Shown here piece by piece: positions 1,716-37,033 of a stretch of DNA of 64,000 bases. The notes under the pieces are model-generated. The model was not told the origin of the DNA. It ran no database searches and worked only from the letters and a program-made list of their open reading frames with translations. The stretch is from Escherichia coli (GTDB taxonomy: Bacteria > Pseudomonadota > Gammaproteobacteria > Enterobacterales > Enterobacteriaceae), in the NCBI RefSeq assembly GCF_002854065.1, contig NZ_CP024147.1; one strand, written 5' to 3'. A program made the position numbers and the translations under genes. The first letter of the stretch is position 1. Every line of letters starts with the position of its first letter.

Positions 1716-1748
1716 TGAAAAAGTGAACAACAGACAGTGTTCGGATTA

Positions 1749-2351
1749 TCAATATTCAGTTTTTAACGTTGAACTGGATTCATTACTGCGTTGTTTAAGA
1801 ATTTCCCGCGCCGAATCTGCCATTATCATGACAGCACCTGCCAACATCAGAGTATCTTTCAATACCAAGCGACCAGCACCGGATAAATAAGGGAAACCAT
1901 GATGAGCGTCACCCAATGCGGGTACCCATGCCTCCGGGGTGGTGATTAAAAATGAGAGTGTTACCAACGGTGTGGTAAATGCCATCAGCCCTCCCAATAA
2001 ACCTAACCAGCGATTGACAGGATTAGCCAAAACCAGCAGAGCAATAATCACCTCCACGACGCCAAGACCGTTGGAAAAACCATAGGTATTATTGGCCGAT
2101 TGCCATGCCCTTGCTTCTGGTTTGTATTCGCCTTCGTGAGTCAGATACTGTTTATAGTCTTCCGGGTGTTCATAAAAGAACGACATTAGTGGACTGTTTG
2201 CGACGAATGGTGTAATGCTGTCTGCCTCGTAAGGGACAAACTTTAATAACCCAATCCACATAAAAACAATCGCAATACTCAGACGAATCAATGTCAGGCC
2301 AATTTTATCTCCCCGACTTAACAGGTGCAGGTATTTTTCCATTGTGAACAT
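1749..2351 (-). CDS. rclC: RclC, DUF417 inner membrane protein of reactive chlorine resistance operon
   Basis: 200-aa hydrophobic ORF; position downstream of rclA/rclB; recalled similarity to YkgB/RclC. Confidence 0.85.
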   Translation of the reverse strand: MFTMEKYLHLLSRGDKIGLTLIRLSIAIVFMWIGLLKFVPYEADSITPFVANSPLMSFFYEHPEDYKQYLTHEGEYKPEARAWQSANNTYGFSNGLGVVEVIIALLVLANPVNRWLGLLGGLMAFTTPLVTLSFLITTPEAWVPALGDAHHGFPYLSGAGRLVLKDTLMLAGAVMIMADSAREILKQRSNESSSTLKTEY

Positions 2352-2353
2352 CC

Positions 2354-2590
2354 TTATTTATACAATACTGCTGTTGCGGTTGAATTATTATCAATTCGCA
2401 TCGATGTGACTTTCCAGGATGAAGCATTATATTTTCTGGCTATATCAGCAATGGCATCCTCCAGAACTGTCGGTGATGCTGATACTGACGAGACGCTGAT
2501 ATGTTTCAGAATTATTTTATCATCTGCATTGGTGGAAAATGCCATAACGCCAGATAATAGTGTTGCAAATAAAACGGATTTTTTAAACAT
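2354..2590 (-). CDS. rclB: RclB, small periplasmic DUF1471 (YdgH/BhsA/McbA family) protein
   Basis: ORF track 2354..2605; likely start at MFKKSV (2590) giving 78 aa with signal peptide. Confidence 0.8.
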   Translation of the reverse strand: MFKKSVLFATLLSGVMAFSTNADDKIILKHISVSSVSASPTVLEDAIADIARKYNASSWKVTSMRIDNNSTATAVLYK

Positions 2591-2698
2591 ATAAAATACC
2601 ATCAATGAAGTGATTAAGAAGTTATAGAGTAACAGGGAATTAATAAGATTCTTTTCTCTGAGACGCCAGAATATTTGTTCTGGCGTCTGATTTTGAGT

Positions 2699-4024
2699 TT
2701 ATTTGACTAATGAAAATAGATCATTGAGTGATTCGCTCATCGACGGATGAGTAAATATCTGATCGCGTAATATGCTATAAGGCAGCCCGGCATCCATCAC
2801 CATTTTCACTATATTAATCATCTCGTGGGAGTCAACACACAGCAGTGATGCCCCTAATATACGTTGGGTTTTATTATCAACAATCGCTTTTAATACCCCA
2901 CGGGTATCGTTCATCACTCTGGCGCGCGGAATTGCAGCTACAGGCAATGTCACCACCTGAATATCAGCACCACTCTCTCTGGCTTGTTCTTCTGTCATAC
3001 CAACCCTGGACAGGGGCGGTGTCATAAATACGGAATAAGGCACATTTTTCCGATCATCAGTACTACGTTTGCCTTCACCCAGTAACTCATCACGTACAAT
3101 GCGGTAATCATCCAGTGATATGTAAGTAAATTGCAGCCCGCCGGTAACATCTCCCATCGCCCAAATATTGTCTGCGGTGGTATGTAATCGCTTGTCAACG
3201 ACAATTGCCCCGCGCTCGTTTACTGCGATACCGGCATTTTCTGGATGTAACGAAGCGGTAGCCGGTTGACGACCGGAAGCTATTAACAGTGCATCCACCG
3301 CCAGTTGGGCGTGCTCGCTATGCACTTGCACTTGATTTTCATGGTGACAGATTCGCTCCACATGGGCATTGAGGATAATATCGACGCCCTGATCGCGTAA
3401 AATCGTCGCGATATTATCAGCAATATCCCGATCTTCCCGAGGCAAAAACAGCGAAGCTGCTTCTAAAATGGTTACCTTGCTGCCAAAATTAGCGAACATA
3501 GAGGCGAACTCAACGCCAATATATCCGCCGCCCAAAATACCTAAATGCCCAGGCAATTCTTTTAGATTAAGTAATCCGGTGCTGTCATATACACCAGGCG
3601 TGGTGATAATTCCAGGAATTGGCGGAACCACGGTTTGTGCACCAGTATTAATAAAAATTTTCTCGCCATGAATCTCCTGATTTCCCTCAGGCCGATGAAC
3701 ACGCAGGCTATGATTATTGATAAACTCCGCCTGGCCGTTGATCACGTCGATATTGGGCATATCTGCAAGATTATGAAAATTCTTATTACGTAAAAAATTA
3801 ACCACTTCATTTTTACGCTGTATGGCACGGACAAAATCTGTGTGCTGCTGTGCGTCATGAACCAATGTTTTGGTTGGGATGCAGCCGATATTAATACAGG
3901 TCCCGCCATACATTGCATTTGATTGTTCGATGAGAGCCACACGCCAACCTGCTTTTGCCAGCGTGACGGCTAATGTTTTTCCAGCCTTGCCAAAACCAAT
4001 AATCACTGCCTGATATTTATTCAT
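2699..4024 (-). CDS. rclA: RclA, pyridine nucleotide-disulfide (group I flavoprotein) oxidoreductase
   Basis: ORF track 2699..4051; start placed at MNKYQAVIIGFGKAGK (441 aa); FAD-binding GxGxxG and redox-active CINIGC motif visible. Confidence 0.9.
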   Translation of the reverse strand: MNKYQAVIIGFGKAGKTLAVTLAKAGWRVALIEQSNAMYGGTCINIGCIPTKTLVHDAQQHTDFVRAIQRKNEVVNFLRNKNFHNLADMPNIDVINGQAEFINNHSLRVHRPEGNQEIHGEKIFINTGAQTVVPPIPGIITTPGVYDSTGLLNLKELPGHLGILGGGYIGVEFASMFANFGSKVTILEAASLFLPREDRDIADNIATILRDQGVDIILNAHVERICHHENQVQVHSEHAQLAVDALLIASGRQPATASLHPENAGIAVNERGAIVVDKRLHTTADNIWAMGDVTGGLQFTYISLDDYRIVRDELLGEGKRSTDDRKNVPYSVFMTPPLSRVGMTEEQARESGADIQVVTLPVAAIPRARVMNDTRGVLKAIVDNKTQRILGASLLCVDSHEMINIVKMVMDAGLPYSILRDQIFTHPSMSESLNDLFSLVK

Positions 4025-13487: not shown

Positions 13488-15521
13488 ATGATAGACCTTT
13501 CACACAGCAGGGAAAAGGACAAAATCAATCCGGTGGTGTTTTACACCTCCGCCGGACTGATTTTGTTGTTTTCCCTGACAACGATCCTGTTTCGCGACTT
13601 CTCGGCCCTGTGGATTGGCCGCACGCTGGACTGGGTTTCTAAAACCTTCGGTTGGTACTATCTGCTGGCGGCAACGCTCTATATTGTCTTTGTGGTCTGT
13701 ATCGCTTGTTCGCGTTTTGGTTCGGTGAAGCTCGGGCCAGAACAATCCAAACCGGAATTCAGCCTGCTGAGTTGGGCGGCAATGCTGTTTGCTGCCGGGA
13801 TCGGTATCGATCTGATGTTCTTTTCCGTAGCCGAACCGGTAACGCAGTATATGCAGCCGCCAGAAGGCGCGGGACAGACGATTGAGGCCGCGCGTCAGGC
13901 GATGGTCTGGACGCTGTTTCACTACGGCTTAACCGGCTGGTCGATGTATGCGCTGATGGGCATGGCGCTCGGATACTTTAGCTATCGTTATAATTTGCCG
14001 CTCACCATCCGCTCGGCACTGTACCCGATCTTCGGTAAACGGATTAACGGGCCGATAGGTCACTCAGTGGATATCGCGGCGGTGATCGGCACTATCTTCG
14101 GTATTGCCACTACGCTCGGTATCGGTGTGGTGCAGCTTAACTATGGCTTGAGCGTACTGTTTGATATTCCCGATTCGATGGCGGCAAAAGCGGCACTGAT
14201 CGCCTTGTCGGTGATAATCGCCACTATCTCGGTGACATCCGGTGTCGATAAGGGCATTCGCGTGTTATCGGAGCTTAATGTCGCGCTGGCGTTGGGATTG
14301 ATCCTGTTCGTGTTGTTTATGGGCGACACTTCGTTCCTGCTTAATGCACTGGTGCTGAATGTTGGCGACTATGTGAATCGCTTTATGGGCATGACGCTCA
14401 ACAGTTTTGCCTTCGACCGTCCAGTTGAGTGGATGAATAACTGGACGCTCTTCTTCTGGGCATGGTGGGTGGCATGGTCGCCGTTTGTCGGCTTGTTCCT
14501 GGCGCGTATCTCGCGTGGGCGTACCATTCGCCAGTTCGTGCTGGGCACGTTGATTATTCCGTTTACCTTCACGCTGTTATGGCTCTCGGTGTTCGGCAAT
14601 AGCGCGCTGTATGAAATCATCCACGGCGGCGCGGCATTTGCCGAGGAAGCGATGGTCCATCCGGAGCGCGGCTTCTACAGCCTGCTGGCGCAGTATCCGG
14701 CGTTTACCTTTAGCGCCTCCGTCGCCACCATTACTGGCCTGCTGTTTTATGTGACCTCGGCGGACTCCGGGGCGCTGGTGCTGGGGAATTTCACCTCGCA
14801 GCTTAAAGATATCAACAGCGACGCCCCCGGCTGGCTGCGCGTCTTCTGGTCGGTGGCGATTGGCCTGCTGACGCTCGGCATGCTGATGACCAACGGGATA
14901 TCCGCGCTGCAAAACACCACGGTGATTATGGGGCTGCCGTTCAGCTTTGTGATCTTCTTCGTGATGGCGGGGTTGTATAAATCTCTGAAGGTAGAAGATT
15001 ACCGCCGTGAAAGTGCCAACCGCGATACCGCACCGCGACCGCTGGGGCTTCAGGATCGCCTGAGCTGGAAAAAACGTCTCTCGCGCCTGATGAATTATCC
15101 GGGCACGCGTTACACTAAACAGATGATGGAGACGGTCTGTTACCCGGCAATGGAAGAAGTGGCGCAGGAGTTGCGGTTGCGCGGCGCGTACGTGGAGCTA
15201 AAAAGCCTGCCGCCGGAAGAGGGACAACAGTTGGGGCATCTGGATTTGTTGGTGCATATGGGCGAAGAGCAAAACTTTGTCTATCAGATTTGGCCGCAGC
15301 AATATTCGGTGCCGGGCTTTACCTACCGCGCACGTAGCGGTAAATCGACTTACTACCGGCTGGAAACTTTCCTGTTAGAAGGCAGCCAGGGCAACGACCT
15401 GATGGACTACAGCAAAGAGCAGGTGATCACCGATATTCTTGACCAGTACGAGCGGCACCTTAACTTTATTCATCTCCATCGTGAAGCGCCGGGCCATAGC
15501 GTGATGTTCCCGGACGCGTGA
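13488..15521 (+). CDS. betT: choline transporter BetT (BCCT family)
   Basis: 677-aa multi-TM ORF with long cytoplasmic C-terminal tail. Confidence 0.95.
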   Translation: MIDLSHSREKDKINPVVFYTSAGLILLFSLTTILFRDFSALWIGRTLDWVSKTFGWYYLLAATLYIVFVVCIACSRFGSVKLGPEQSKPEFSLLSWAAMLFAAGIGIDLMFFSVAEPVTQYMQPPEGAGQTIEAARQAMVWTLFHYGLTGWSMYALMGMALGYFSYRYNLPLTIRSALYPIFGKRINGPIGHSVDIAAVIGTIFGIATTLGIGVVQLNYGLSVLFDIPDSMAAKAALIALSVIIATISVTSGVDKGIRVLSELNVALALGLILFVLFMGDTSFLLNALVLNVGDYVNRFMGMTLNSFAFDRPVEWMNNWTLFFWAWWVAWSPFVGLFLARISRGRTIRQFVLGTLIIPFTFTLLWLSVFGNSALYEIIHGGAAFAEEAMVHPERGFYSLLAQYPAFTFSASVATITGLLFYVTSADSGALVLGNFTSQLKDINSDAPGWLRVFWSVAIGLLTLGMLMTNGISALQNTTVIMGLPFSFVIFFVMAGLYKSLKVEDYRRESANRDTAPRPLGLQDRLSWKKRLSRLMNYPGTRYTKQMMETVCYPAMEEVAQELRLRGAYVELKSLPPEEGQQLGHLDLLVHMGEEQNFVYQIWPQQYSVPGFTYRARSGKSTYYRLETFLLEGSQGNDLMDYSKEQVITDILDQYERHLNFIHLHREAPGHSVMFPDA

Positions 15522-15534
15522 TTGTTATTGCATA

Positions 15535-15571
15535 AAACCGCGCCATGTCTGCATATGGCGCGGTTTCTCTT
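15535..15571 (+). terminator. betT rho-independent terminator candidate (stem aaaccgcgccat / atggcgcggttt followed by T-rich run)
   Basis: Read directly from sequence, 14 nt after betT stop. Confidence 0.6.
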
Positions 15572-16396
15572 ACCTCTTGATACGTTATATCTGTACGGTT
15601 AAGCCCTTAGTATCGATTGATGATTGCCAGGCAACAGATAATAAAAAAGAAAAGAACTATTGAAGCCCAAAACCTACATTTGGACTGTTGTGAATGTTCA
15701 ATAAGCTTAGTCTTATTTAATGTAAATATTGGTGCTAATTTGAAATGACGCTTTATTCATGGGGAACGCGTAGCGCAAATCAACTAAAATCAATGTAACC
15801 GTTTGTTGTTTAAGGTTTAATTGTCTGTGTCTGATATTTTATTGATTGTTTTAAATATTGTTTTTATTGTCATTGTTATAATGTTGGCTATCTATTGCTG
15901 AATGGATTCAGTCTTAAAAGGCAGGTTGTTAAGGGATAGGCATAGAGTAATGACGTGTATGCATAACCAACATCTTTACTCATTATGTCATTGAATGTTG
16001 ACGCTATGTGTTTATGAGGTTGAGGTATTTTCAGTTGATCTGGATTGTTAAATTCATATAATGCGCCTTTACTCATGAGTGGGCATCAATACGTAGTGGG
16101 AAATTATAAATATCGAAATAGTCCAACTACTTCTTTATTACCAAAAATGAGTATCTGAATTTTAATATTGCATTCTTGCGTGATTATCTCCTGAGTTTGA
16201 CTTGTGATTACCTTTTTAAGGTATTTAGCGTAACTGTTTTTGAGCGAGCATCAGAGGTAAAGATAATCTTCTTGATAGTGATGTGGGATGTTATACGAAT
16301 GGCATCGCTAATGTTTATGGTTACCCCTTATGTGTGCTCAGGAATCCACAGGTAATCACTCATACTGAACAGCGATAAAAGATAAAAGGTGTGTTC

Positions 16397-17485
16397 ATGA
16401 ATTCATGTGATTTTCGTGTTTTTCTGCAAGAGTTCGGTACAACGGTTCATTTGTCATTGCCTGGTAGCGTATCCGAGAAAGAACGACTGCTACTCAAGCT
16501 GCTGATGCAGGGAATGTCTGTAACAGAAATATCACAGTACAGAAATCGCAGTGCAAAGACAATTTCACATCAAAAGAAACAGCTCTTTGAGAAACTGGGG
16601 ATTCAGAGCGATATTACTTTCTGGCGCGATATTTTCTTTCAGTACAATCCGGAGATCATATCCGCCACGGGTAGTAATAGTCATAGATATATTAATGATA
16701 ATCACTATCACCATATCGTCACGCCTGAAGCCATCAGTCTGGCGTTGGAAAACCATGAATTCAAACCGTGGATCCAACCGGTTTTCTGCGCGCAGACTGG
16801 GGTACTGACGGGCTGTGAAGTGCTTGTCCGCTGGGAACATCCACAAACGGGAATCATCCCGCCGGATCAGTTTATTCCTCTGGCGGAGTCATCCGGTCTT
16901 ATTGTCATAATGACCCGCCAACTGATGAAACAGACTGCGGATATTCTAATGCCGGTAAAACATTTGCTGCCGGATAATTTCCATATTGGTATCAACGTCT
17001 CGGCGGGTTGTTTTTTGGCCGCGGGATTTGAAAAAGAATGCCTGAACCTGGTCAAGAAATTAGGAAACGATAAAATCAAACTGGTTCTCGAGCTAACGGA
17101 ACGTAACCCTATTCCGGTAACGCCAGAAGCCAGAGCGATATTTGACAGCCTTCATCAGCACAACATTACCTTTGCGCTGGATGACTTTGGTACGGGTTAT
17201 GCGACCTATCGTTATCTGCAGGCGTTTCCGGTCGATTTTATTAAGATCGATAAGTCATTTGTGCAAATGGCGAGTGTCGACGAAATATCCGGTCATATTG
17301 TGGACAATATTGTCGAACTGGCTCGTAAGCCTGGTCTGAGTATCGTGGCGGAAGGGGTAGAAACCCAGGAGCAGGCGGATTTAATGATCGGTAAAGGCGT
17401 TCACTTTTTGCAGGGCTATTTGTACTCTCCGCCAGTACCGGGTAATAAATTTATCTCTGAATGGGTAATGAAAGCAGGTGGTTGA
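16397..17485 (+). CDS. pdeL: c-di-GMP phosphodiesterase PdeL (LuxR-type HTH + EAL domain)
   Basis: ORF track 16391..17485; start at MNSCDF (362 aa); LuxR HTH near N-terminus, EAL-domain motifs (ELTE, DDFGTGY). Confidence 0.9.
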   Translation: MNSCDFRVFLQEFGTTVHLSLPGSVSEKERLLLKLLMQGMSVTEISQYRNRSAKTISHQKKQLFEKLGIQSDITFWRDIFFQYNPEIISATGSNSHRYINDNHYHHIVTPEAISLALENHEFKPWIQPVFCAQTGVLTGCEVLVRWEHPQTGIIPPDQFIPLAESSGLIVIMTRQLMKQTADILMPVKHLLPDNFHIGINVSAGCFLAAGFEKECLNLVKKLGNDKIKLVLELTERNPIPVTPEARAIFDSLHQHNITFALDDFGTGYATYRYLQAFPVDFIKIDKSFVQMASVDEISGHIVDNIVELARKPGLSIVAEGVETQEQADLMIGKGVHFLQGYLYSPPVPGNKFISEWVMKAGG

Positions 17486-20814: not shown

Positions 20815-22351
20815 AATAGTCATTAAACCGAATACCTATTTTGATTCTGTCTCACTGATGTCTATCTCCACGCGTGCAAATAAACTCGACGGCGTCGAGC
20901 AGGCATTTGTGGCGATGGCGACCGAAATGAATAAAGGCGTGCTGAAGAATTTAGGACTGCTGACGCCGGAGCTGGAGCAGGCGAAAAACGGCGACCTGAT
21001 GATTGTCATCAATGGTAAATCGGGTGCGGACAATGAGCAGTTGCTGGCGGAGATTGAAGAACTGTTCAACACCAAAGCGCAAAGCGGCTCGCACGAGGCG
21101 CGTTACGCCACTATTGCCAGCGCCAAAAAGCATATCCCGGAAAGTAACCTGGCGGTGATTTCGGTCAACGGTCTGTTTGCCGCTCGCGAAGCGCGTCAGG
21201 CGCTGCAAAACGATCTCAACGTGATGCTGTTTTCCGATAACGTCTCAGTTGAAGATGAACTGGCGCTCAAGCAACTGGCTCACGAAAAAGGGCTGCTGAT
21301 GATGGGGCCAGACTGTGGCACGGCGATTATCAACGGCGCGGCGCTCTGTTTTGGTAACGCCGTGCGTCGCGGCAACATCGGTATTGTTGGCGCATCCGGC
21401 ACCGGCAGCCAGGAGCTGAGCGTCCGCATTCATGAATTTGGTGGCGGCGTTTCACAACTGATTGGCACCGGCGGGCGCGACCTGAGCGAGAAAATCGGCG
21501 GCCTGATGATGCTCGACGCCATCGGGATGCTGGAAAACGATCCGCAAACTGAAATTATCGCGCTGATTTCAAAACCTCCCGCGCCTGCGGTGGCCCGTAA
21601 AGTGCTGGAACGCGCCCGCGCCTGCCGCAAGCCGGTGGTGGTCTGCTTCCTCGGTCGTGGCGAAACGCCGGTTGACGAGCAGGGGCTACAGTTTGCTCGC
21701 GGCAGCAAAGAAGCGGCGCTAAAAGCGGTGATGCTCTCCGGCGTGAAACAGGAAAATCTCGACCTGCATACGCTTAACCAGCCGTTGATTGCGGATGTGC
21801 GTGCGCGTCTGCAACCCCAGCAGAAATACATTCGTGGCCTGTTCTGCGGCGGCACGCTGTGCGACGAAACCATGTTCGCGGTGATGGAAAAACACGGCGA
21901 TGTCTACAGCAACATTCAGCCCGATCCGGAATTCCGCCTGAAAGATATCAACCGCAGCATCAAACACACCTTCCTCGACTTTGGCGATGACGACTTCACC
22001 AACGGCAAGCCGCATCCAATGATTGACCCCACCAACCGCATCAGTCGCTTGATCGAAGAGGCGCGCGATCCAGAAGTGGCGGTGATCGTGATGGATTTTG
22101 TGCTCGGATTTGGATCGCATGAAGATCCGGTCGGCTCCACCATCGAGGCGATCAAAGAAGCGAAAGCGATCGCCGCTGCCGAAGGACGCGAGTTGATCAT
22201 TCTCGCCTATGTGCTGGGTACCGATCTTGATACGCCATCGTTAGAACAACAAAGCCAGATGCTGCTTGATGCCGGAGTGATTCTGGCGAGCAGCAGCACC
22301 AATACCGGATTGCTGGCGCGTGAATTTATCTGCAAAGGGGAGGAAGCCTGA
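20804..22351 (+). CDS. yahF: FdrA-like acyl-CoA synthetase / succinyl-CoA-synthetase-alpha-like protein YahF
   Basis: 515 aa; CoA-binding-like glycine-rich segments. Confidence 0.8.
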   Translation: MSVKIVIKPNTYFDSVSLMSISTRANKLDGVEQAFVAMATEMNKGVLKNLGLLTPELEQAKNGDLMIVINGKSGADNEQLLAEIEELFNTKAQSGSHEARYATIASAKKHIPESNLAVISVNGLFAAREARQALQNDLNVMLFSDNVSVEDELALKQLAHEKGLLMMGPDCGTAIINGAALCFGNAVRRGNIGIVGASGTGSQELSVRIHEFGGGVSQLIGTGGRDLSEKIGGLMMLDAIGMLENDPQTEIIALISKPPAPAVARKVLERARACRKPVVVCFLGRGETPVDEQGLQFARGSKEAALKAVMLSGVKQENLDLHTLNQPLIADVRARLQPQQKYIRGLFCGGTLCDETMFAVMEKHGDVYSNIQPDPEFRLKDINRSIKHTFLDFGDDDFTNGKPHPMIDPTNRISRLIEEARDPEVAVIVMDFVLGFGSHEDPVGSTIEAIKEAKAIAAAEGRELIILAYVLGTDLDTPSLEQQSQMLLDAGVILASSSTNTGLLAREFICKGEEA

Positions 22352-23757
22352 TGAGCCAGTCACTGTTTAGCCAACCATTGAACGTTATTAACGTCGGCAT
22401 CGCCATGTTTAGCGATGACCTGAAAAAGCAGCATGTAGAAGTGACTCAACTCGACTGGACGCCGCCGGGGCAGGGCAATATGCAGGTGGTGCAGGCGCTG
22501 GATAACATTGCCGATTCGCCGCTGGCAGACAAAATCGCCGCCGCTAACCAGCAGGCGCTGGAGCGCATTATCCAGTCGCATCCGGTGCTGATTGGTTTTG
22601 ATCAGGCGATTAACGTGGTGCCGGGCATGACGCCGAAAACCATTCTTCACGCCGGGCCGCCGATCACCTGGGAAAAAATGTGCGGCGCGATGAAAGGCGC
22701 GGTCACCGGAGCGCTGGTGTTCGAAGGACTGGCGAAAGATCTCGACGAGGCGGCTGAACTGGCGGCTTCCGGGGAGATCACCTTCTCGCCGTGTCACGAG
22801 CACGACTGCGTGGGATCGATGGCGGGTGTTACCTCGGCCTCGATGTTTATGCACATCGTAAAAAACAAAACCTACGGCAACATCGCTTATACCAACATGA
22901 GCGAGCAGATGGCGAAGATTTTGCGTATGGGCGCTAACGACCAGAGCGTGATTGACCGCCTGAACTGGATGCGTGATGTGCAGGGACCAATACTGCGCGA
23001 CGCGATGAAAATTATCGGCGAAATCGATCTGCGCTTAATGCTGGCGCAGGCGCTGCATATGGGCGATGAGTGCCATAACCGCAATAACGCCGGGACGACG
23101 CTGCTGATTCAGGCGCTGACGCCGGGGATCATTCAGGCAGGTTATTCCGTCGAGCAACAGCGCGAAGTGTTTGAGTTTGTCGCCAGCAGCGACTACTTCT
23201 CCGGCCCGACGTGGATGGCGATGTGTAAAGCGGCGATGGATGCGGCGCACGGCATCGAATACAGCACCGTGGTCACCACCATGGCGCGTAACGGCGTCGA
23301 GTTCGGCCTGCGGGTCAGCGGATTACCGGGGCAATGGTTTACCGGTCCGGCGCAGCAGGTCATCGGCCCGATGTTTGCCGGTTATAAGCCGGAAGATTCG
23401 GGGCTGGATATCGGCGACAGTGCCATCACCGAAACCTACGGTATTGGCGGATTTGCCATGGCGACCGCGCCTGCAATCGTCGCGCTGGTGGGTGGCACGG
23501 TGGAAGAGGCTATCGATTTCTCCCGTCAGATGCGCGAAATCACCCTTGGCGAAAACCCCAACGTCACCATTCCGCTGCTTGGTTTTATGGGCGTGCCGTT
23601 GGCAATCGACATCACCCGCGTGGGTAGCAGCGGCATTCTGCCGGTGATCAACACCGCCATCGCCCATAAAGATGCGGGCGTCGGCATGATTGGCGCGGGC
23701 ATTGTGCATCCACCTTTTGCCTGCTTCGAGAAAGCCATTCTTGGTTACGGCGTCTGA
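22351..23757 (+). CDS. yahG: DUF1116 protein YahG (YlbE paralogue)
   Basis: 468-aa ORF, start overlaps yahF stop (ATGA). Confidence 0.75.
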   Translation: MSQSLFSQPLNVINVGIAMFSDDLKKQHVEVTQLDWTPPGQGNMQVVQALDNIADSPLADKIAAANQQALERIIQSHPVLIGFDQAINVVPGMTPKTILHAGPPITWEKMCGAMKGAVTGALVFEGLAKDLDEAAELAASGEITFSPCHEHDCVGSMAGVTSASMFMHIVKNKTYGNIAYTNMSEQMAKILRMGANDQSVIDRLNWMRDVQGPILRDAMKIIGEIDLRLMLAQALHMGDECHNRNNAGTTLLIQALTPGIIQAGYSVEQQREVFEFVASSDYFSGPTWMAMCKAAMDAAHGIEYSTVVTTMARNGVEFGLRVSGLPGQWFTGPAQQVIGPMFAGYKPEDSGLDIGDSAITETYGIGGFAMATAPAIVALVGGTVEEAIDFSRQMREITLGENPNVTIPLLGFMGVPLAIDITRVGSSGILPVINTAIAHKDAGVGMIGAGIVHPPFACFEKAILGYGV

Positions 23758-26540: not shown

Positions 26541-26951
26541 ATGACCATAAAAGAAAAAATCTTACAAAAATATCCCCATGCTTCCTTTTGTACTTTTGGC
26601 GATTCTGCAGCGTTGGCCGATCACCTCGCAACGTTGATTGCGACTGGTGTTAAAACAGCTTCCTGTGGTTCGCTGGCAGGATGTATTGAAGACAACGCAT
26701 TTCCGATGATTGGTGAGTATAAGATTGTAGAAAATAGCCGTGGTGAGCCTGTATGTGTTATCAGAGTGATTGGCCTGCATTTACTGCGCTTTTCTGATGT
26801 CACCGCGGAGCTTGCCCGTAAGGAAGGTGAAGGTGACCTCAGTCTTGAATATTGGCGTAATGAACACCGTCGTTTTTTCCAGGCAGAAGGAAGCTATTCA
26901 CCAGAAATGGACGTTATCTTTGAAGAATATGCCCTTATTGACGTTGTGTAG
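26541..26951 (+). CDS. ASCH-domain protein
   Basis: ORF track 26511..26951; start likely MTIKEKI; small beta-barrel ASCH-like sequence; annotation tentative. Confidence 0.55.
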   Translation: MTIKEKILQKYPHASFCTFGDSAALADHLATLIATGVKTASCGSLAGCIEDNAFPMIGEYKIVENSRGEPVCVIRVIGLHLLRFSDVTAELARKEGEGDLSLEYWRNEHRRFFQAEGSYSPEMDVIFEEYALIDVV

Positions 26952-27201
26952 ATAACTATTTATATACGCGAAATAAACTCACACACATAAAATATCGCTA
27001 ATTTTGTTTATTTTGCTATTTTTTACGTGATGAATGTCACACTTATTGTTGCTGCCCGTTTTGTCCATATTTATAACCATATTTTTAATAGCTGCCTGAA
27101 ATAGGGCTGTTTATTCTGCATAAAAATATTCGAAAATTCTTATTCTCTCCAGCGCGCTAATTTGGGCGAACACTTCCTGACTACCCTGCAATGAGGCTGA
27201 A

Positions 27202-28188
27202 ATGATGAATAAACGTTTTGTTATCAATATGGTGTCTTCGCTGTTATTAGGCGCTGCGCTAATTTCTGCGCCGCTCCAGGCAGCGGAAAAAGTCGTGGTG
27301 AATATTTCTAAAGTCGATGGTATGCCGTGGTTTAATCGCATGGGCGAAGGTGTGGTTGAGGCGGGTAAAGCCTTTGGTGTTAATGCGTCACAGGTGGGGC
27401 CTTCAAGTACTGATGCTCCGCAACAGGTTAAAATTATTGAGGATTTAATCGCCCGTAAGGTTAATGCAATTACTATCGTGCCAAACGATGCCAACGTGCT
27501 GGAACCGGTATTCAAAAAAGCGCGAGATGCCGGAATTGTGGTTCTGACCAACGAATCCCCCGGTCAGCCAAGTGCTAACTGGGATATCGAAATCATTGAT
27601 AACGAAAAATTTGCCGCTGAATATGTTGAGCATATGGCGAAACGCATGGGGGGCAAGGGCGGCTATGTGATTTACGTGGGTAGTTTGACCGTGCCGCAGC
27701 ATAACTTATGGGCTGACTTGCTGGTGAAATACCAGAAAGAGCATTACCCGGATATGCATGAAGTTACCCGCCGCATGCCGGTTGCCGAGAGTGTGGATGA
27801 CTCACGTCGTACCACACTGGACCTGATGAAAACCTATCCTGACTTAAAAGCGGTTGTCTCCTTTGGTTCAAACGGTCCGATTGGCGCGGGACGTGCGGTG
27901 AAAGAGAAACGGGCGAAAAATAAAGTCGCAGTCTATGGCATGATGATCCCTTCACAGGCGGCATCACTGATTAAAAGTGGTGATATCACCGAAGGGATTA
28001 CTTACGATCCGGCCTCTGCAGGTTACGCACTCGCAGCCGTCGCCAGCACGTTGCTGAAGGGTGAAGAGATCAAACCTGGATTAGAAATGCAGAATCTGGG
28101 TAAGGCCGACGTAGATATGGATAAGCGAATTATCCGTTTCCATAAGGTATTACTGGTCAACAAAGACAATATCGACTCACTTTATTAA
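27202..28188 (+). CDS. periplasmic sugar-binding protein of ABC transporter (LsrB/RbsB-like type I PBP)
   Basis: 328 aa with signal peptide (…ISAPLQAAEK); C-terminus …LLVNKDNIDSLY resembles LsrB …FNKDNIDKYDF (recall). Confidence 0.8.
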   Translation: MMNKRFVINMVSSLLLGAALISAPLQAAEKVVVNISKVDGMPWFNRMGEGVVEAGKAFGVNASQVGPSSTDAPQQVKIIEDLIARKVNAITIVPNDANVLEPVFKKARDAGIVVLTNESPGQPSANWDIEIIDNEKFAAEYVEHMAKRMGGKGGYVIYVGSLTVPQHNLWADLLVKYQKEHYPDMHEVTRRMPVAESVDDSRRTTLDLMKTYPDLKAVVSFGSNGPIGAGRAVKEKRAKNKVAVYGMMIPSQAASLIKSGDITEGITYDPASAGYALAAVASTLLKGEEIKPGLEMQNLGKADVDMDKRIIRFHKVLLVNKDNIDSLY

Positions 28189-28236
28189 TCCATTTCTTCG
28201 GGGCGAAAGCCCCGATTCTTATTGCCAGGGGATGTT

Positions 28237-29721
28237 ATGGAAACCTTCCTTTCCCTTCGTCATATCAACAAAACGTTTCATGCCACGCGAGCGCTGCGCG
28301 ATGTTTCTCTCGACTTTATGTCGGGTGAAGTGCACTGCCTTGCCGGGCAAAACGGCTGTGGTAAATCGACGTTGATCAAAATTATGTCCGGTGTTTATCG
28401 CCCGGATGAGGGAGCGGAAATTACGCTTGGTGGGAAAAAATGGTCAAAGCTGACACCCGCCGCTTCGGTGGCGCAGGGGATTCAGGTGATTTATCAGGAC
28501 CTCTCTTTATTTCCTAACCTGAGTGTCTGGGAGAATATCGCCGTGAATCACTATCACCACGGTCTGTTTGTTAACCGACGTCGTCTGCGTGAGGTGGCGC
28601 AGGCGGCAATGACCAGTATTAACGTCACATTGCCACTGGATACGCTCGTTTCTGAGCTTTCAATTGCCCGCTGTCAGCTGGTGGCAATTTGCCGTGCACT
28701 GGCGCAGGACGCACGGTTGATCGTGATGGATGAACCAACCGCTTCGCTGACCCATCAGGAAGTGCAAGGGTTATTACAGGTGGTGCATCAATTGCGGGAA
28801 CGCGGGATCTGCGTGGTCTTCGTCAGTCATCGTCTGGAAGAAGTGATGGAAGTTTCCGACCGTATTTCAGTGCTGAAAGATGGTGAGCTGGTCGGGACTT
28901 TTCCGGCTGCAGAGATGACCACAAAACAACTCGGTTTCCTGATGACCGGCCAGGAGTTTGAATATCAGGTGCGAGAGTTGTGGCAGGGAAAATCCAGCAC
29001 CCCGGTGCTGGAGGTGCGTAATTTAAGTCGTCATGGGGAATATCTAAATATTAACTTGCGGGTGGAAGCGGGCGAAGTGGTATCGATTGTTGGCCTGCTT
29101 GGTGCGGGGCGCACGGAATTATGTCTGAGTCTGTTTGGTATGACCCGACCGGATGCTGGCGAGATCCTCATCAACGGCCAGCCGGTTACACTGCATAGTA
29201 ACCAGGACGCCATCCGCCACGGTATTGGTTATGTTTCGGAAGATCGCATGTCGCGCGGTTTGGTGATGGCGCAATCTATTGAAGACAACATCATTAGCAC
29301 TGTTTTTCACAAGGTAAAAGATCGCTTCGGCTTTCTGAGTGAAGCTAAAGTGCGTGACCTGGTGGACAGGCTAATCAAGGCATTGACCATCAAAGTCTCT
29401 GATCCTCATCTCCCGGTGAATACGCTTTCTGGTGGTAACGCGCAGCGAGTATCGATCGCCAAATGGCTGGCGATTGGGCCACGACTGTTGATTCTCGATA
29501 GCCCGACAGTCGGTGTTGATATCGCCAACAAAGCAGGAATATACGGCATTATCAGCGATCTGGCGGCTCATGGCATTGCGGTATTGATGATCTGCGATGA
29601 AATTGAAGAAGCGTGGTATCAAAGCCACCGGATTTTGGTAATGCAAAAAGGTCAGATCACCCATAGCTTCCTGCCTGACAGCAGTTCTCAGGCCAGGATT
29701 GCGGAGGTGGTAAATGGCTGA
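28237..29721 (+). CDS. ABC transporter ATP-binding protein with duplicated ABC domains (RbsA/LsrA-like)
   Basis: ORF track 28222..29721; start at METFLSL; Walker A GQNGCGKST, signature LSGGNAQR, second degenerate ABC domain. Confidence 0.9.
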   Translation: METFLSLRHINKTFHATRALRDVSLDFMSGEVHCLAGQNGCGKSTLIKIMSGVYRPDEGAEITLGGKKWSKLTPAASVAQGIQVIYQDLSLFPNLSVWENIAVNHYHHGLFVNRRRLREVAQAAMTSINVTLPLDTLVSELSIARCQLVAICRALAQDARLIVMDEPTASLTHQEVQGLLQVVHQLRERGICVVFVSHRLEEVMEVSDRISVLKDGELVGTFPAAEMTTKQLGFLMTGQEFEYQVRELWQGKSSTPVLEVRNLSRHGEYLNINLRVEAGEVVSIVGLLGAGRTELCLSLFGMTRPDAGEILINGQPVTLHSNQDAIRHGIGYVSEDRMSRGLVMAQSIEDNIISTVFHKVKDRFGFLSEAKVRDLVDRLIKALTIKVSDPHLPVNTLSGGNAQRVSIAKWLAIGPRLLILDSPTVGVDIANKAGIYGIISDLAAHGIAVLMICDEIEEAWYQSHRILVMQKGQITHSFLPDSSSQARIAEVVNG

Positions 29722-31724: not shown

Positions 31725-32774
31725 ATGAAGATCAAAGCTGTTGGTGCATATTCCGCTAAACAACCACTTGAACCGATGGATATCACCCGGCGTGAACCGG
31801 GACCGAATGATGTCAAAATCGAAATCGCTTACTGTGGCGTCTGCCATTCCGATCTCCACCAGGTCCGTTCCGAGTGGGCGGGGACGGTTTATCCCTGCGT
31901 GCCGGGTCATGAAATTGTGGGGCGTGTGGTAGCCGTTGGTGATCAGGTAAAAAAATATGCGCCGGGCGATCTGGTCGGTGTCGGCTGCATTGTCGACAGT
32001 TGTAAGCATTGCGAAGAGTGTGAAGACGGGCTGGAAAACTACTGTGATCACATGACCGGCACCTATAACTCGCCAACGCCGGACGAACCGGGCCATACTC
32101 TGGGCGGCTACTCACAACAGATCGTCGTTCATGAGCGATATGTTCTGCGTATTCGTCACCCGCAAGAGCAGCTGGCGGCGGTGGCTCCTTTGTTGTGTGC
32201 AGGGATCACCACGTACTCGCCGCTACGTTACTGGCAGGCCGGGCCGGGTAAAAAAGTGGGCGTGGTCGGCATCGGCGGTCTGGGACATATGGGGATTAAG
32301 CTGGCCCACGCGATGGGGGCACATGTGGTGGCATTTACCACTTCTGAGGCAAAACGCGAAGCGGCAAAAGCCCTGGGGGCCGATGAAGTTGTTAACTCAC
32401 GCAATGCCGATGAGATGGCGGCTCATCTGAAGAGTTTCGATTTCATTTTGAATACAGTAGCTGCGCCACATAATCTCGACGATTTTACCACCTTGCTGAA
32501 GCGTGATGGCACCATGACGCTGGTTGGTGCGCCTGCGACACCGCATAAATCGCCGGAAGTTTTCAACCTGATCATGAAACGCCGTGCGATAGCCGGTTCT
32601 ATGATTGGCGGCATTCCAGAAACTCAGGAGATGCTCGATTTTTGCGCCGAACATGGCATCGTGGCTGATATAGAGATGATTCGGGCCGATCAAATTAATG
32701 AAGCCTATGAGCGAATGCTGCGCGGTGATGTGAAATATCGTTTTGTTATCGATAATCGCACACTAACAGACTGA
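31725..32774 (+). CDS. yahK: NADPH-dependent aldehyde reductase YahK (zinc-type alcohol dehydrogenase)
   Basis: 349 aa; Zn-ADH motifs GHEIVG, CGVCHSD, GIGGLGH. Confidence 0.9.
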   Translation: MKIKAVGAYSAKQPLEPMDITRREPGPNDVKIEIAYCGVCHSDLHQVRSEWAGTVYPCVPGHEIVGRVVAVGDQVKKYAPGDLVGVGCIVDSCKHCEECEDGLENYCDHMTGTYNSPTPDEPGHTLGGYSQQIVVHERYVLRIRHPQEQLAAVAPLLCAGITTYSPLRYWQAGPGKKVGVVGIGGLGHMGIKLAHAMGAHVVAFTTSEAKREAAKALGADEVVNSRNADEMAAHLKSFDFILNTVAAPHNLDDFTTLLKRDGTMTLVGAPATPHKSPEVFNLIMKRRAIAGSMIGGIPETQEMLDFCAEHGIVADIEMIRADQINEAYERMLRGDVKYRFVIDNRTLTD

Positions 32775-32812
32775 AAAAATTAATAAATACCCTGTGATTT
32801 AACATATTAACT

Positions 32813-32849
32813 TCGCTCTCCACTTAACTTTTTAGTTAAGGAGAGCGAA
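32813..32849 (+). terminator. imperfect inverted repeat after yahK (cgctctcc...ggagagcg); putative terminator
   Basis: Read from sequence; no clear U-tract. Confidence 0.35.
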
Positions 32850-33528
32850 ATAATATCAAAGTAGCAGTAAAACCTATAACGTAAATTCAAATTGTTAAAT
32901 TAACTCCCTCCAGTACACAATACTTCTCACGTTAGTTATGAGCGATTTCTGATAGTGCCTGGTTTAATTAGAGCTTTATTATCTGCGACGTTTATTTTTA
33001 TTTAAGAGAGATCGCGATGATATCATTAAAAGCTCCGCGCAATAATTTGATGCCATATACGCAACAAAGCATACTTAATACGGTTAAAAACAATCAGTTA
33101 CCAGAGGATATCAAAAGCTCCCTGGTTTCCTGTGTCGATATATTCAAGGTTTTGATTAAACAATATTATGATTATCCTTATGATTGTCGTGATGATTTAG
33201 TCGATGACGACAAACTCATTCATCTCATGGCTGCCGTACGAGACTGTGAGTGGTCAGACGATAACGCACTCACCATAAATGTGCAGTTTAATGATTTCCC
33301 TGGATTTTATGACTGGATGGATTACCCTGATCACCCGGTTAAGTTTGTTTTTCGCATACTTGAAAATCAAAAAGGGACAGTTTGGGTATATGACCAGGAT
33401 GATGCGTTTCTTGATATTAAAGCAAATGTGCAGGCTGGACGCTTTACCGGGCTTAAGAAATTAGTGCAGTTTATCAATTCAGTGCGAACAGATTGCAAAT
33501 GTATTCTTCTTGAACACCATATGCCTTT

Positions 33529-33533
33529 GCTGA
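33529..33533. repeat. IS2 target-site duplication, left copy (GCTGA)
   Basis: Identical 5-mer immediately flanks both IS2 termini. Confidence 0.85.
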
Positions 33534-33544
33534 TGGATTTGCCC

Positions 33545-34450
33545 CTATATTTCCAGACATCTGTTATCACTTAACCCATTACAAGCCCGCTGCCGCAGAT
33601 ATTCCCGTGGCGAGCGATAACCCAGCGCACTATGCGGATGCCATTCGTTATAATGCTCGAACGCCTCTGCAAGGTTCTTTGCTGCCGTTAACCCGTCTGG
33701 TTTGGGCATGATACTGATGTAGTCACGCTTTATCGTTTTCACGAAGCTCTCTGCTATTCCGTTACTCTCCGGACTCCGCACCGCCGTGTTCTTCGGTTCA
33801 AGTCCCAACATCCGGGCGAACTGGCGTGTTTCATTAGCCCGGTAGCATGAACCATTATCCGTCAGCCACTCCACTGGAGACGACGGAAGATCGTTGCCGA
33901 AGCGGCGTTCCACCGCTCCCAGCATGACGTCCTGTACTGTTTCACTGTTGAAGCCGCCGGTAGTGACCGCCCAGTGCAGTGCCTCACGATCACAGCAGTC
34001 CAGCGCGAACGTGACACGCAGTCTCTCTCCGTTATCACAGCAGAACTCGAACCCGTCAGAGCACCATCGCTGATTGCTTTCTTTCACGGCCACTCTGCCT
34101 GTATGTGCCCGTTTCGATGGCGGTACAGCAGGTTTTCGCTCAAGCAACAGCGCATTCTGGCGCATGATCCGGTAAACACGTTTGGCATTGATCGCAGGCA
34201 TACCATCAAGTTCTGCCTGTCTGCGAAGCAGCGCCCATACCCGACGATAACCATACGTGGGCAGCTCTCCGATAACATGGTGTATACGGAGAAGCACATC
34301 CGTATCATCAGTGTGACGACTGCGGCGGCCATCCATCCAGTCATCGGTTCGTCTGAGAATGACGTGCAACTGCGCACGCGACACCCGGAGACAACGGCTG
34401 ACTAAGCTTACTCCCCATCCCCGGGCAATAAGGGCGCGTGCGCTATCCAC
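33545..34450 (-). CDS. insD: IS2 transposase OrfB (InsD), DDE integrase domain
   Basis: 301-aa ORF inside the IS2 element with IS3-family transposase catalytic domain. Confidence 0.9.
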
Positions 34451-34773
34451 TTTTTTGCCCGTCCATATTCAACGGCTTCTTTGAGGAGTTCATTTTCCAT
34501 CGTTTTCTTGCCGAGCAGGCGCTGGAGTTCTTTAATCTGCTTCATGGCGGCAGCAAGTTCAGAGGCAGGAACAACCTGTTCTCCGGCGGCGACAGCAGTA
34601 AGACTTCCTTCCTGGTATTGCTTACGCCAGAGAAATAACTGGCTGGCTGCTACACCATGTTGCCGGGCAACGAGGGAGACCGTCATCCCCGGTTCAAAGC
34701 TCTGCTGAACAATTGCGATCTTTTCCTGTGTGGTACGCCGTCTGCGTTTCTCCGGCCCTAAGACATCAATCAT
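34408..34773 (-). CDS. insC: IS2 OrfA (InsC), HTH transposase N-terminal protein
   Basis: ORF track 34408..34818; start at [18 protein letters not shown] (121 aa); overlaps insD in -1 frame as expected for IS3-family frameshift. Confidence 0.9.
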
Positions 34774-34864
34774 CTGTTCTCCAATGACTAGTCTAAAAAC
34801 TAGTATTAAGACTATCACTTATTTAAGTGATATTGGTTGTCTGGAGATTCAGGGGGCCAGTCTA

Positions 34865-34869
34865 GCTGA
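34865..34869. repeat. IS2 target-site duplication, right copy (GCTGA)
   Basis: See left copy. Confidence 0.85.
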
Positions 34870-35580
34870 GACTTTTCCCTAAAGGGAAAGAGTGTATGCA
34901 TGTGGAAAAATGGCTTCGCGAAATGTCGTCTATTCCGGAGACAGACGCGCCCATTAAGCAGGCGCTTGCGCATGGATTATTATTACACTTAAAAAATATC
35001 TACCCTGTTTTTCCTGAATCACTGGTGATGTTATTGCTCTCTGTTCTGGACGTAAAAACATACAGAGATGATGCACGATTAAATGAATGGATATCTAATA
35101 GAGTGCAGGAATTAGGTGACAGATATTATCCTGTAAATAAGCACGTTAAAATTCGCTACACTCTTTAGTTCAGAAAGGGTTCCACCTGCAAGTTGTTATT
35201 CCACCAGAGAGTGAATCGCAATGCAGGTAATCATTTCATCTGTATATCTGTATGCCAACTGGCATTCCATCTCTTTTTTCGCCGATATTTTGTTGTGATC
35301 GGCGACACTTCGCTTAAAAAAGCACCAGTAGTGGTTTCGCAGCCATGCGGTGTATAAAAAATGATCTCATGCAGATGTTTTGTGAATGTGTGGGTTGACA
35401 TTCATATGAAAAAAATCATAATTCCATCATGTTTGTGTGGGGTCTTTTCTGTATCTTACGCATCGCACTCAAGCCTGACAGAAAATATGCTGTAAGGCTC
35501 ATATCAAAAACCGCCATTAGCTCATCAGGAAGAGCAGACGACAACCAGGATTGTTGTATGGTACGGGGTTCGAGGCCTCG

Positions 35581-35826
35581 ATGGCGGTCCAACTTTTCAA
35601 AACTCTTCTGAATCAGATCCCCTTATTATCATCCCTGCAAAGTGGAACATTGCCATTGTTTGGCTATTCAGGACGGGTCAGACCAATGAAAAAAGCCCAC
35701 ACAGGGGAGAGTGGGCTGAAATGGGAAGCTAAAGACTCAAGTAAACTTATCGGAAATAAGGACCACGCATTACGGGGGCTATCATCGCCGATGGTCGGGA
35801 TTCGGCAAATCAGGTTGATTACGTAG
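35581..35826 (+). CDS. yahM: small uncharacterised protein YahM
   Basis: ORF track 35551..35826; start guessed at MAVQLFK (81 aa); identification from position and length recall only. Confidence 0.5.
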   Translation: MAVQLFKTLLNQIPLLSSLQSGTLPLFGYSGRVRPMKKAHTGESGLKWEAKDSSKLIGNKDHALRGLSSPMVGIRQIRLIT

Positions 35827-35842
35827 AGAGTAAATTATCTGC

Positions 35843-36514
35843 TCACCGCTGCGTCACCCCTTCGTAAATCAGGCGTAGCGCGAATACACCAATAATTGCA
35901 CCAATAACCCGACTGGCAACGCGTTGCATACGCCCATAAGCATGACGCACAGCGGGCAAAGAAAACGCCTGACTAAGAAAAACTCGCCAGATAATTGATG
36001 CGAGCACAATCCCCGCCCAGGCCATTAAACGTGCCCATGTTGGTGTTTCGGCATTTAATGTTACTGAGAAAATACTAATAAAAAATAAAACGGTTTGTGG
36101 GTTAGAGAGATCGGTAATTAATCCACGGCGAAAAAAGACATACCAGGGGGCGTTAATCGGTTGTTGTAGTGTGCTCATTTGCGGTGTTGACTGGCGGCGC
36201 ATGCTGCACCACGCAAACCATAAGAGATAAGCGCCGCCGACGATTCTGATAAGCGAAAAAATCTCCTCACACTGCGTAATTAGCGTTGCAAGACCAAACA
36301 AACCCAACCCGGAATAAAATGCATCGCCCAGCGCCACGCCCAGTCCGGTCAGCACTCCTGCGCGTCGACCGGAAGCCAGGCTGGTTTGTACTACCACAAA
36401 AAGATTGGCTCCCGGATTAAAAAAAGTAATCACGAACAGTCCTACGGTCAGGTAAACGGCATGCAAAGGATCCATAGTGATTTCATCCATAAATAAGTGA
36501 ACTAACTGCATCAT
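35843..36514 (-). CDS. yahN: LysE/RhtB-family amino-acid exporter YahN
   Basis: 223-aa multi-TM ORF. Confidence 0.8.
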   Translation of the reverse strand: MMQLVHLFMDEITMDPLHAVYLTVGLFVITFFNPGANLFVVVQTSLASGRRAGVLTGLGVALGDAFYSGLGLFGLATLITQCEEIFSLIRIVGGAYLLWFAWCSMRRQSTPQMSTLQQPINAPWYVFFRRGLITDLSNPQTVLFFISIFSVTLNAETPTWARLMAWAGIVLASIIWRVFLSQAFSLPAVRHAYGRMQRVASRVIGAIIGVFALRLIYEGVTQR

Positions 36515-36660
36515 ATTTCTACCAAAAATAATCGGGTGCGAGAGAGATCACAAAGTGTCTTATTTCCGGTTACTGGCGTTTATGCCCTGACTGAACTAAT
36601 TATTAATCAACCCAATAATGTCGGTGGGTGATAGTGTGATAACAACTCTGGAGCCGTAAT

Positions 36661-36936
36661 ATGAAAATAATCTCTAAAATGTTAGTCGGTGCGTTAGCGT
36701 TTGCCGTTACCAATGTCTATGCCGCTGAATTGATGACCAAAGCGGAATTTGAAAAAGTTGAATCGCAGTATGAAAAAATAGGTGATATTTCAACCAGTAA
36801 TGAAATGTCGACTGCAGATGCAAAAGAAGATTTAATCAAAAAAGCCGATGAAAAAGGGGCTGATGTGTTGGTACTGACCTCCGGTCAAACTGACAATAAG
36901 ATCCACGGCACGGCGGATATTTATAAGAAGAAGTAA
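36661..36936 (+). CDS. yahO: periplasmic DUF1471 (YdgH/BhsA/McbA family) protein YahO
   Basis: 91 aa with signal peptide (…NVYAAE). Confidence 0.8.
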
Positions 36937-37033
36937 TTCTGAATCCTATGTAAACATCCCCGATGCGTAAGTTTATCGGTGATCATCTATTGAAATTTAT
37001 GCCGGATAAAGCGTTCGCTCTGCATTCGGCAGT

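Follow-up and report, generated by a model that had tools for sequence, protein, structure and literature searches.

In the stretch of Escherichia coli DNA analysed here (64,000 nucleotides of contig NZ_CP024147.1, assembly GCF_002854065.1; hereafter the window), the gene yahL is split by an insertion sequence. The locus raises the question of what this element is, how recently it arrived, whether it affects the neighbouring genes and whether yahL is a preferred target. YahL, which is uncharacterised, occurs only in E. coli and Shigella, and its gene was put forward as a qPCR marker specific to the two (PMC11057252). An earlier note, made from the letters of the window, had described a recent and still mobile IS2 insertion in yahL and had thought an outward effect on transcription toward yahM conceivable.

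Materials and Methods

The element was read directly and by script, and was compared by megablast with 5,426 complete E. coli genomes. For an IS2 in the ISfinder sense, identity to a reference copy should lie well above 90-95% across the full ~1331 bp; IS2A of K-12 served as this reference. Insertions around yahL were searched in the same 5,426 genomes with chimeric queries composed of 400 bp of flank, IS2 and 400 bp of flank, with the IS in both orientations. Nineteen loci were mapped, namely the 11 in the orientation of the window and those 8 of the 33 in the opposite orientation that lie within the yahL flanks. Identical chimeric queries were used for two other regions. The regional counts are genomes, without collapsing by clone.

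Results

Identity of the inserted element

The duplication, the element and the second duplication together span 33529-34869, and the element itself is exactly 1331 bp long (Table 1). It shares 1330/1331 bases with IS2A of K-12 MG1655 (NC_000913.3 381260-382590, annotated 'insertion sequence:IS2A'), an identity well above the 90-95% range. The sole mismatch, at IS position 606 (C vs A in K-12), is synonymous (CCC vs CCA, both Pro). Many RefSeq copies annotated 'IS3-like element IS2 family transposase' are 100% identical to the window copy over the full length. In 4,058 of the 5,426 genomes a copy spans 80% or more of the element, and IS2 occupies a median of 4 places per genome.

Table 1. Features of the insertion and its surroundings, in window positions
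Feature	Position	Strand	Basis or remark
IS2 element, complete, 1331 bp	33534..34864	- (transposase genes)	Full-length 100% identity to annotated IS2 copies; 1330/1331 vs K-12 IS2A
IRR, right inverted repeat, donor end, 41 bp	33534..33574	-	End alignment; role per PMC3299598
Outward -35 TGGAAA within IRR, part of Pjunc in the minicircle	complement of 33550-33555	leftward	Junction reconstruction
IRL, left inverted repeat, recipient end, 42 bp, upstream of orfA, abuts yahL 3' part	34823..34864	-	Sequence read; PMC3299598
orfA (InsC/InsA), 121 aa, helix-turn-helix repressor	34773 (ATG) to 34408 (stop), 34408..34773	-	Pfam HTH_Tnp_1; NCBIfam
orfB (InsD), 301 aa as ORF, DDE catalytic core from HTH_21, rve, rve_3	33545..34450	-	ORF list, Pfam, NCBIfam
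A6G (A AAA AAG) programmed -1 frameshift window	34450..34456	-	Computed in-frame position; PMC3299598
Left target-site duplication GCTGA	33529..33533		yahL nt 513-517; single copy in CUWW06
Right target-site duplication GCTGA	34865..34869		Sequence read, script, CUWW06 comparison
yahL 5' fragment, nt 1-517, 172 native codons	33017..33533	+	ORF list, YahL reconstruction, CUWW06 annotation
yahL 3' fragment, nt 518-816 including stop codon	34870..35168	+	ORF list, reconstruction
Promoter-like site TTGACA-16-CATAAT, 11/12 matches, sigma70-type near-consensus, outside IS2	35395..35422	+	Promoter scan
xtpA	35429-35611	+	K-12 annotation; overlaps yahM start
yahM	35581-35826	+	K-12 annotation

The inverted repeats of IS2 are known to measure 42 bp (IRL) and 41 bp (IRR) (PMC3299598). 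On the plus strand the element starts with TGGATTTGCCCC... (IRR, 41 bp) and closes with the reverse complement of TAGACTGGCCCCC... (IRL, 42 bp); the outermost letters are TGGATTTGCCCCTATATTTCCAGACA at the start and the reverse complement of TAGACTGGCCCCCTGAATCTCCAGACA at the finish. Read directly, IRL starts 5'-TAGACTGG... and IRR finishes ...CAAATCCA-3'. The two ends form an imperfect inverted repeat, and their alignment has 31 matches and one gap.

Both transposase genes are intact. OrfA matched the Pfam family HTH_Tnp_1 (E = 1.9e-19) and OrfB matched rve (1.1e-18), rve_3 (1.8e-18) and HTH_21 (4.5e-11). The A6G motif, described as the frameshift window of IS2 (PMC3299598), lies in the orfA frame as GCA AAA AAG, and a -1 shift at this point was computed to give a 409-aa OrfAB fusion transposase. 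Other RefSeq IS2 copies carry a matching 1229-nt 'programmed frameshift' CDS. In NCBIfam the fusion protein scored 723.9 bits with 'IS2 transposase TnpB' (cut-off 597); the scores with 'IS2 repressor TnpA' and with transpos_IS3 (IS3-family transposase) were 238.8 bits (cut-off 229) and 279.5 bits (cut-off 160). The element thus has the marks of the IS3 family, with overlapping orfA (frame 0) and orfB (frame -1), the A6G motif, a helix-turn-helix in OrfA and a DDE rve domain (RNase H-fold) in OrfB.

These results agree with the complete IS2 described by the earlier note in length, in both termini and in both ORFs; a mismatch of termini or length to IS2 was looked for by alignment with the reference and was not seen. 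Every defining feature of IS2 that a sequence can test was found and nothing contradicts the identification: the element is a canonical IS2 (IS3 family, IS2 group).

The disrupted gene

The insertion point lies after nt 517 of the 816 nt of yahL. Both copies of GCTGA are exact and the uninterrupted site in strain CUWW06 holds one, so that the perfect 5-bp duplication reported before was present on re-examination. Excision of IS2 and one GCTGA by script gives back an open 816-nt frame for the 271-aa YahL, confirming that yahL is interrupted. The 5' frame continues into IS2, where it stops at 33574 after 13 IS-encoded residues, and forms a 185-aa ORF (33017-33574). In the 3' fragment, an internal ATG at 34896 opens a 90-aa ORF.

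No Pfam or NCBIfam family matched YahL or YahM above the cut-off. A function assignment was dropped for both proteins, the sole match being a sub-threshold one to SDH_protease (E = 0.002). We infer that the knockout most likely has no effect, or almost none, on fitness.

Repeats commonly mislead assemblers, and IS2 is present in E. coli in several copies; the junctions might accordingly have been created by an IS2 read pile-up misplaced in yahL. However, they are base-exact, and the 5 bp perfectly duplicated at them occur once at the empty site. A misjoin would not yield such a structure, and the probability of an assembly artefact is practically negligible.

Origin of the insertion

The complete genome nearest to the window by its flanks is that of CUWW06 (NZ_CP182139.1), with 99.9% identity vs 98.1% for the runner-up. 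Positions 256-64000 of the window are collinear with this genome, with ~19 mismatches across ~62.6 kb. CUWW06 has an intact 271-aa yahL and an empty site with a single GCTGA. The two BLAST pieces of the window on CUWW06 overlap by exactly these 5 bp (window 33533 falls on position 35620 and window 34865 on position 35616 of the CUWW06 locus, L004), which directly proves an empty site and a true target duplication rather than a chance repeat. The IS content of the two differs at four points: three IS1 are found only in CUWW06 (at ~1105, 15980 and 20810 in window positions), and IS2 only in the window.

The junction of the window was found in none of the 5,426 genomes searched. The site at nt 513-517 was unused in 11/11 same-orientation RefSeq genomes with IS2 near yahL and in the 8 mapped insertions of opposite orientation (of 33; those inside the yahL flanks). 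Because the site is empty in CUWW06 and no junction is shared, the insertion is younger than the split from CUWW06 and private to its lineage. The insertion is therefore recent, as had been proposed: neither the nearest relative nor any of the complete genomes searched has it. The earlier note had also called it the sole IS of the window, and this was confirmed. Positions 256-64000 match CUWW06 DNA annotated with ordinary genes and without IS in the shared parts, and local BLAST detected no second IS2 and no IS1 or IS5-type copy in the window (positions 1-255 were covered by BLAST alone).

The copy is apparently functional. From its sequence identity, its intact ends and ORFs and its absence in the nearest relative, it can reasonably be inferred that it is still mobile. 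Transcription of yahL enters IS2 antisense to the transposase, which could dampen its mobility.

Transcription across the insertion site

The earlier note had the 3'-proximal end of IS2 facing the downstream part of yahL and yahM. This orientation proved to be reversed: orfA and orfB lie on the minus strand, and it is IRL that faces the 3' part of yahL and xtpA/yahM. IRR abuts the 5' part of yahL, and its -35 points leftward, antisense into the yahL 5' fragment. The promoter-like site at 35395-35422 lies directly upstream of xtpA, 530 bp downstream of IS2. Since xtpA and yahM have this site of their own, their expression is probably independent of yahL transcription.

We considered whether the element might serve the 3' part of yahL, xtpA and yahM as a mobile promoter or a regulatory switch. 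Such a role has precedents, because the outward -35 of IS2 sits in IRR and builds fusion promoters at ampC, acrEF and neo (PMC9330008). In the window, however, IRR faces away from xtpA/yahM, and no usable -10 was found at its flank at spacings of 16 to 18 bp, where the candidates are just TCAGCA, CAGCAA and AGCAAA. The arrangement of the ampC/acrEF type, a -35 placed 16-18 bp from a usable -10 and directed toward a gene, is absent. As for IRL, which does face these genes, we know of no outward promoter in this end of IS2. The promoter scan gave no site at either IS2 junction, and between 34400 and 34900, which takes in the IRL-proximal part of IS2, it gave nothing promoter-like on the plus strand; xtpA/yahM have their own 11/12 site. 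Junction inspection and the scan together revealed neither a fusion promoter at the IRR/flank nor an outward promoter at IRL. It is therefore highly improbable that the element acts as a mobile promoter, and activation toward yahM, the effect that had been thought conceivable, is not supported. The insertion could also be polar, cutting xtpA and yahM off from transcription begun in or upstream of yahL; any phenotype would then arise via reduced xtpA/yahM expression and not via the loss of YahL. In genomic SELEX, the sigma28, sigmaE and sigma32 holoenzymes bound inside yahL (27-, 18- and 5.6-fold), with yahM listed downstream as the possible target (PMC5493296), and the peak, at ~nt 261 of yahL, precedes the insertion point at nt 517. 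However, the binding was measured in vitro on AT-rich fragments of 200-300 bp, and the authors took the analysis of intragenic peaks no further (PMC5493296). With a near-consensus sigma70-type site directly upstream of xtpA, polarity is unlikely. On the reading that we consider very probable, a canonical IS2 has knocked out yahL and provides no promoter for the neighbouring genes.

IS2 around yahL in other genomes

Another 44 genomes have IS2 or a 96% variant of it within or close to yahL, 11 in the orientation of the window and 33 in the opposite one. The first 12 IS2 insertions near yahL were all transposase-antisense, but this orientation bias was an ascertainment artefact: the search had joined same-strand pieces only, and the query with the flipped IS found the 33 opposite insertions. 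All of the mapped IS2 and IS2-like loci (19/19) are separate events, with both orientations represented, and 18/19 have perfect 5-bp duplications. No target consensus was evident among the 20 duplicated pentamers. The mapped positions extend from ~75 nt upstream of yahL through nt 30-764 of the gene and on to the yahN-yahO spacer.

In RefSeq genomes, IS2 or an IS2-like element has inserted independently at least 13 more times inside the 816-bp yahL ORF. The insertions of TK3896 and MB20 are 1 bp apart, and the pentamer TTAGG at yahL nt 760-764 was used by 5283 and PSS-16 in opposite orientations and by different IS2 alleles. The DNA outside the ORF is hit just as often, namely ahead of yahL, in the gap between it and yahM, and in the yahN-yahO spacer. 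The region has other lesions as well: the yahL of DETEC-C31 contains an internal stop, and IS1, ISKpn26 and ISApl1 lie nearby.

The GC content of yahL and its surroundings is 33-43%, vs 50-57% in neighbouring genes. The 44 genomes (11 + 33) with IS2 at yahL (45% GC over the sampled 3.9 kb) were compared with the numbers that identical chimeric queries gave elsewhere. In prpC-prpD-prpE (centred on 42000; 57% GC) no genome had an IS2 in either orientation (0 + 0), and in the non-coding betT-pdeL spacer (centred on 15900; 36-39% GC in the core) the count was 101 (77 + 24). About 15 per 3.9-kb frame would be expected if the 19,709 chromosomal IS2 matches were independent and uniformly spread. A hot spot specific to yahL was rejected, since betT-pdeL gives more insertions and the GC-rich prpCDE gives none. 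The contrast between these three regions indicates that the recurrence of IS2 is regional and tracks base composition.

It might be argued that the insertion is adaptive, that the loss of YahL is favoured, and that the many independent events in yahL are due to parallel selection, not to a preferred target or to neutrality. The 13 or more other insertions within the ORF, the two events at the same TTAGG in opposite orientations, the two others 1 bp apart and the further lesions in and near yahL would all fit such selection. On the other hand, insertions are just as frequent outside the ORF, and the non-coding AT-rich betT-pdeL spacer is an even more frequent target, as a regional, compositional effect would predict. 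Moreover, IS2 is missing from the vicinity of yahL in the great majority of the 5,426 genomes, and the conservation of YahL suffices for its use as a signature marker of E. coli/Shigella (PMC11057252). Selection for the loss of YahL is therefore quite unlikely. Targets of IS2 tend to lie near intrinsically curved DNA (PMC3299598). The regional recurrence is consistent with this preference, although milder selection against insertions in AT-rich DNA could explain it just as well. It is possible, but in our judgement doubtful, that yahK-yahO and betT-pdeL are true IS2 landing zones, targeted by DNA curvature or by the binding of H-NS-type nucleoid proteins rather than merely tolerant of insertions, down to single sites such as TTAGG.

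Discussion

The element, its ends, the duplication and the target add nothing to what is already known of IS2, and the locus represents a textbook insertion. From the IS2 literature, the element would have entered by the copy-out/paste-in route of the IS3 family. In step I, IRR would be cleaved and joined beside IRL to form a figure-of-eight, which would then give rise to a minicircle, in which the abutting ends create the strong promoter Pjunc. When IRR of the window copy was abutted to IRL with a 1-bp spacer, the reconstructed junction read TGGAAA-17-TAGACT, in agreement with the 17-bp spacing rule for Pjunc (PMC3299598). OrfAB would then integrate the circle with staggered cuts 5 bp apart, giving the GCTGA duplication. 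The target was nt 513-517 of the AT-rich gene yahL, struck after the lineage had split from its closest sequenced relative. The outcome is a YahL cut to 172 native residues plus 13 IS-encoded ones, with no promoter provided for the neighbours. The event is one of the many independent IS2 insertions that build up in AT-rich islands of this part of the chromosome.

The insertion marks the strain-specific loss of a gene whose function is unknown, and its value is mainly one of bookkeeping. If typed, the exact junction can serve as a lineage marker for the clone. The earlier note had suggested PCR across yahL in related isolates to date the insertion. However, the size of such a product can neither date nor trace it, because independent IS2 events are common there (at least 13 others in the 5,426 genomes), and the junction sequence is needed. 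The 112-bp yahL qPCR amplicon (34941-35052) is intact in the window. In TK3896 and MB20 the IS2 lies inside this amplicon, so that a small fraction of strains would be missed by yahL qPCR.

The regional recurrence is a modest by-product of the IS2 analysis. The counts of 0 at prpCDE and of 44 and 101 at yahL and betT-pdeL are a tidy illustration of regional IS2 bias and introduce no new principle. If the landing zones were real, natural E. coli genomes would already hold a usable map of IS2 target choice, and yahL, which has been put forward as a qPCR marker for all E. coli/Shigella, would be a systematically fragile target.

Compared with other IS2 insertions in yahL, that of the window stands on its own. 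The copies in CAVP773, MIN12, B7A, TK3896, 5283, 582, DEC5B and LH85-a have 99.5-100% identity and a perfect 5-bp duplication each, but they differ in position (yahL nt 89 to 764), pentamer and orientation, and none is at the GCTGA site. IS2A of K-12 resembles the window copy in length, in the 42-/41-bp IRL/IRR, in orfA/orfB, in the A6G window and in the 5-bp target duplication. The two are distinguished by the one synonymous base and by the insertion site, K-12 yahL being free of IS2. An IS2-like isoform (WP_089541817.1 / WP_085959875.1, RefSeq 'IS3 family transposase') is ~95.8% identical, with the same 1331 bp, architecture and 5-bp duplications, and it also strikes the yahK-yahO region (PI12, SW070912, MB20, PSS-16, ETEC1739, EC05 and others). 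The window copy is the canonical allele, with ~4% nucleotide divergence from this isoform.

The model elements of the IS3 family, IS911 and IS3, share with IS2 the copy-out/paste-in route via a figure-of-eight and a minicircle with a transient junction promoter, as well as OrfA and OrfAB produced via -1 frameshifting and a DDE (rve) transposase (PMC3299598). IS2 differs from them in that IRR alone is able to act as the step I donor, in that IRL ends in TA-3' and not in CA-3', and in that its target duplications are 5 bp long vs 3-4 bp.

Results and Discussion

IS2 recurs in the neighborhood of yahL. Among 5,426 complete E. coli genomes, 44 carry IS2 or a 96%-identical variant in or near this gene (yahK-yahO, window 32700-37000). 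We mapped the insertions of 19 of these 44 genomes (loci L001-L003 and L006-L021), and all 19 are independent events, spread over different positions. Both orientations are represented, perfect 5-bp duplications flank 18 of the 19, and the pentamer TTAGG at yahL nt 760-764 received two separate insertions. The yahK-yahO region also holds IS1, ISKpn26 and ISApl1 insertions.

The same test found IS2 or IS2-like elements in 101 genomes (77 + 24) in the betT-pdeL intergenic region (window 15500-16300, 36-39% GC), a count of genomes that takes clonal groups in full; the matches there have several distinct spans. It found IS2 in none of the genomes at prpCDE, a GC-rich control (window about 42000). 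The nearest complete genome, CUWW06, carries IS1 at the same betT-pdeL spot. It has three IS1B copies, none of which is present in the window; counting the window's own IS2, the two sequences are four IS events apart, while substitutions number only about 19 over 62.6 kb.

The variant is a 1331-bp element with about 95.8% identity to canonical IS2, found at L010, L011, L012, L013 and L018-L021. It is widespread, shares its target region with canonical IS2 and is probably an IS2 isoform; RefSeq names it only 'IS3 family transposase' (WP_089541817.1, WP_085959875.1). In strain PSS-08-1, the 3' end of yahJ and the entire yahK are replaced by the IS2-like element, an arrangement suggestive of an adjacent deletion mediated by the IS.

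Features located in the window and in related loci
Feature	Sequence	Position	Corresponding window position	Remark
IS2 variant, example copy	L021	933-2263		
IS2-like element	L013 (PSS-08-1)	1501-2831		no matching duplication (CAATC vs ATCTG)
IS1B no. 1	L004 (CUWW06)	856-1622	about 1105	in aldo/keto reductase gene
IS1B no. 2	L004 (CUWW06)	about 16511-17270	about 15980	betT-pdeL spacer
IS1B no. 3	L004 (CUWW06)	about 22113-22880	about 20810	yahE/fdrA interval
yahJ	L004 (CUWW06)	26947-28329		pseudogene with internal stop by annotation
codB	L004 (CUWW06)	46129-47388		pseudogene with internal stop by annotation
Tandem array, prpE-codB intergenic	window	44509-45224		7.6 copies of 94-bp unit, 93% matches

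Insertions in yahL bear on diagnostics, as a YahL qPCR amplicon has been published for detecting E. coli/Shigella (PMC11057252). In the window this amplicon (yahL nt 589-700) is whole at 34941-35052, downstream of IS2, and both primers match exactly. TK3896 and MB20 have IS2 inserted within it, at nt 646-651, which would abolish amplification; the 756-bp Sanger amplicon would gain 1336 bp in the strain of the window.

Genomic SELEX detected strong in-vitro RNA polymerase binding inside yahL (sigma28 27-fold, sigmaE 18-fold, sigma32 5.6-fold), with the peak at about nt 261 of the K-12 gene, old coordinate 343660 (PMC5493296). The window equivalent is about 33280. This signal may reflect a real internal promoter, or it may be non-specific binding to AT-rich DNA. 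Downstream, in the region of window 35395-35611, a near-consensus promoter-like site (TTGACA-16-CATAAT) is followed by a 60-aa ORF, the counterpart of K-12 xtpA (b4845), which overlaps the yahM start. Because the site ends 6-7 nt upstream of the ATG, the arrangement suggests an xtpA transcript that is leaderless or has a very short leader.

The prpE-codB array is built from a unit of REP-like palindromic sequences (GCCTGATGCGACGC..., ...GGTCGGATAAGGCGC). Its copies are about 93% alike and can be aligned to CUWW06 in several registers, and the array looks like a BIME-type cluster.
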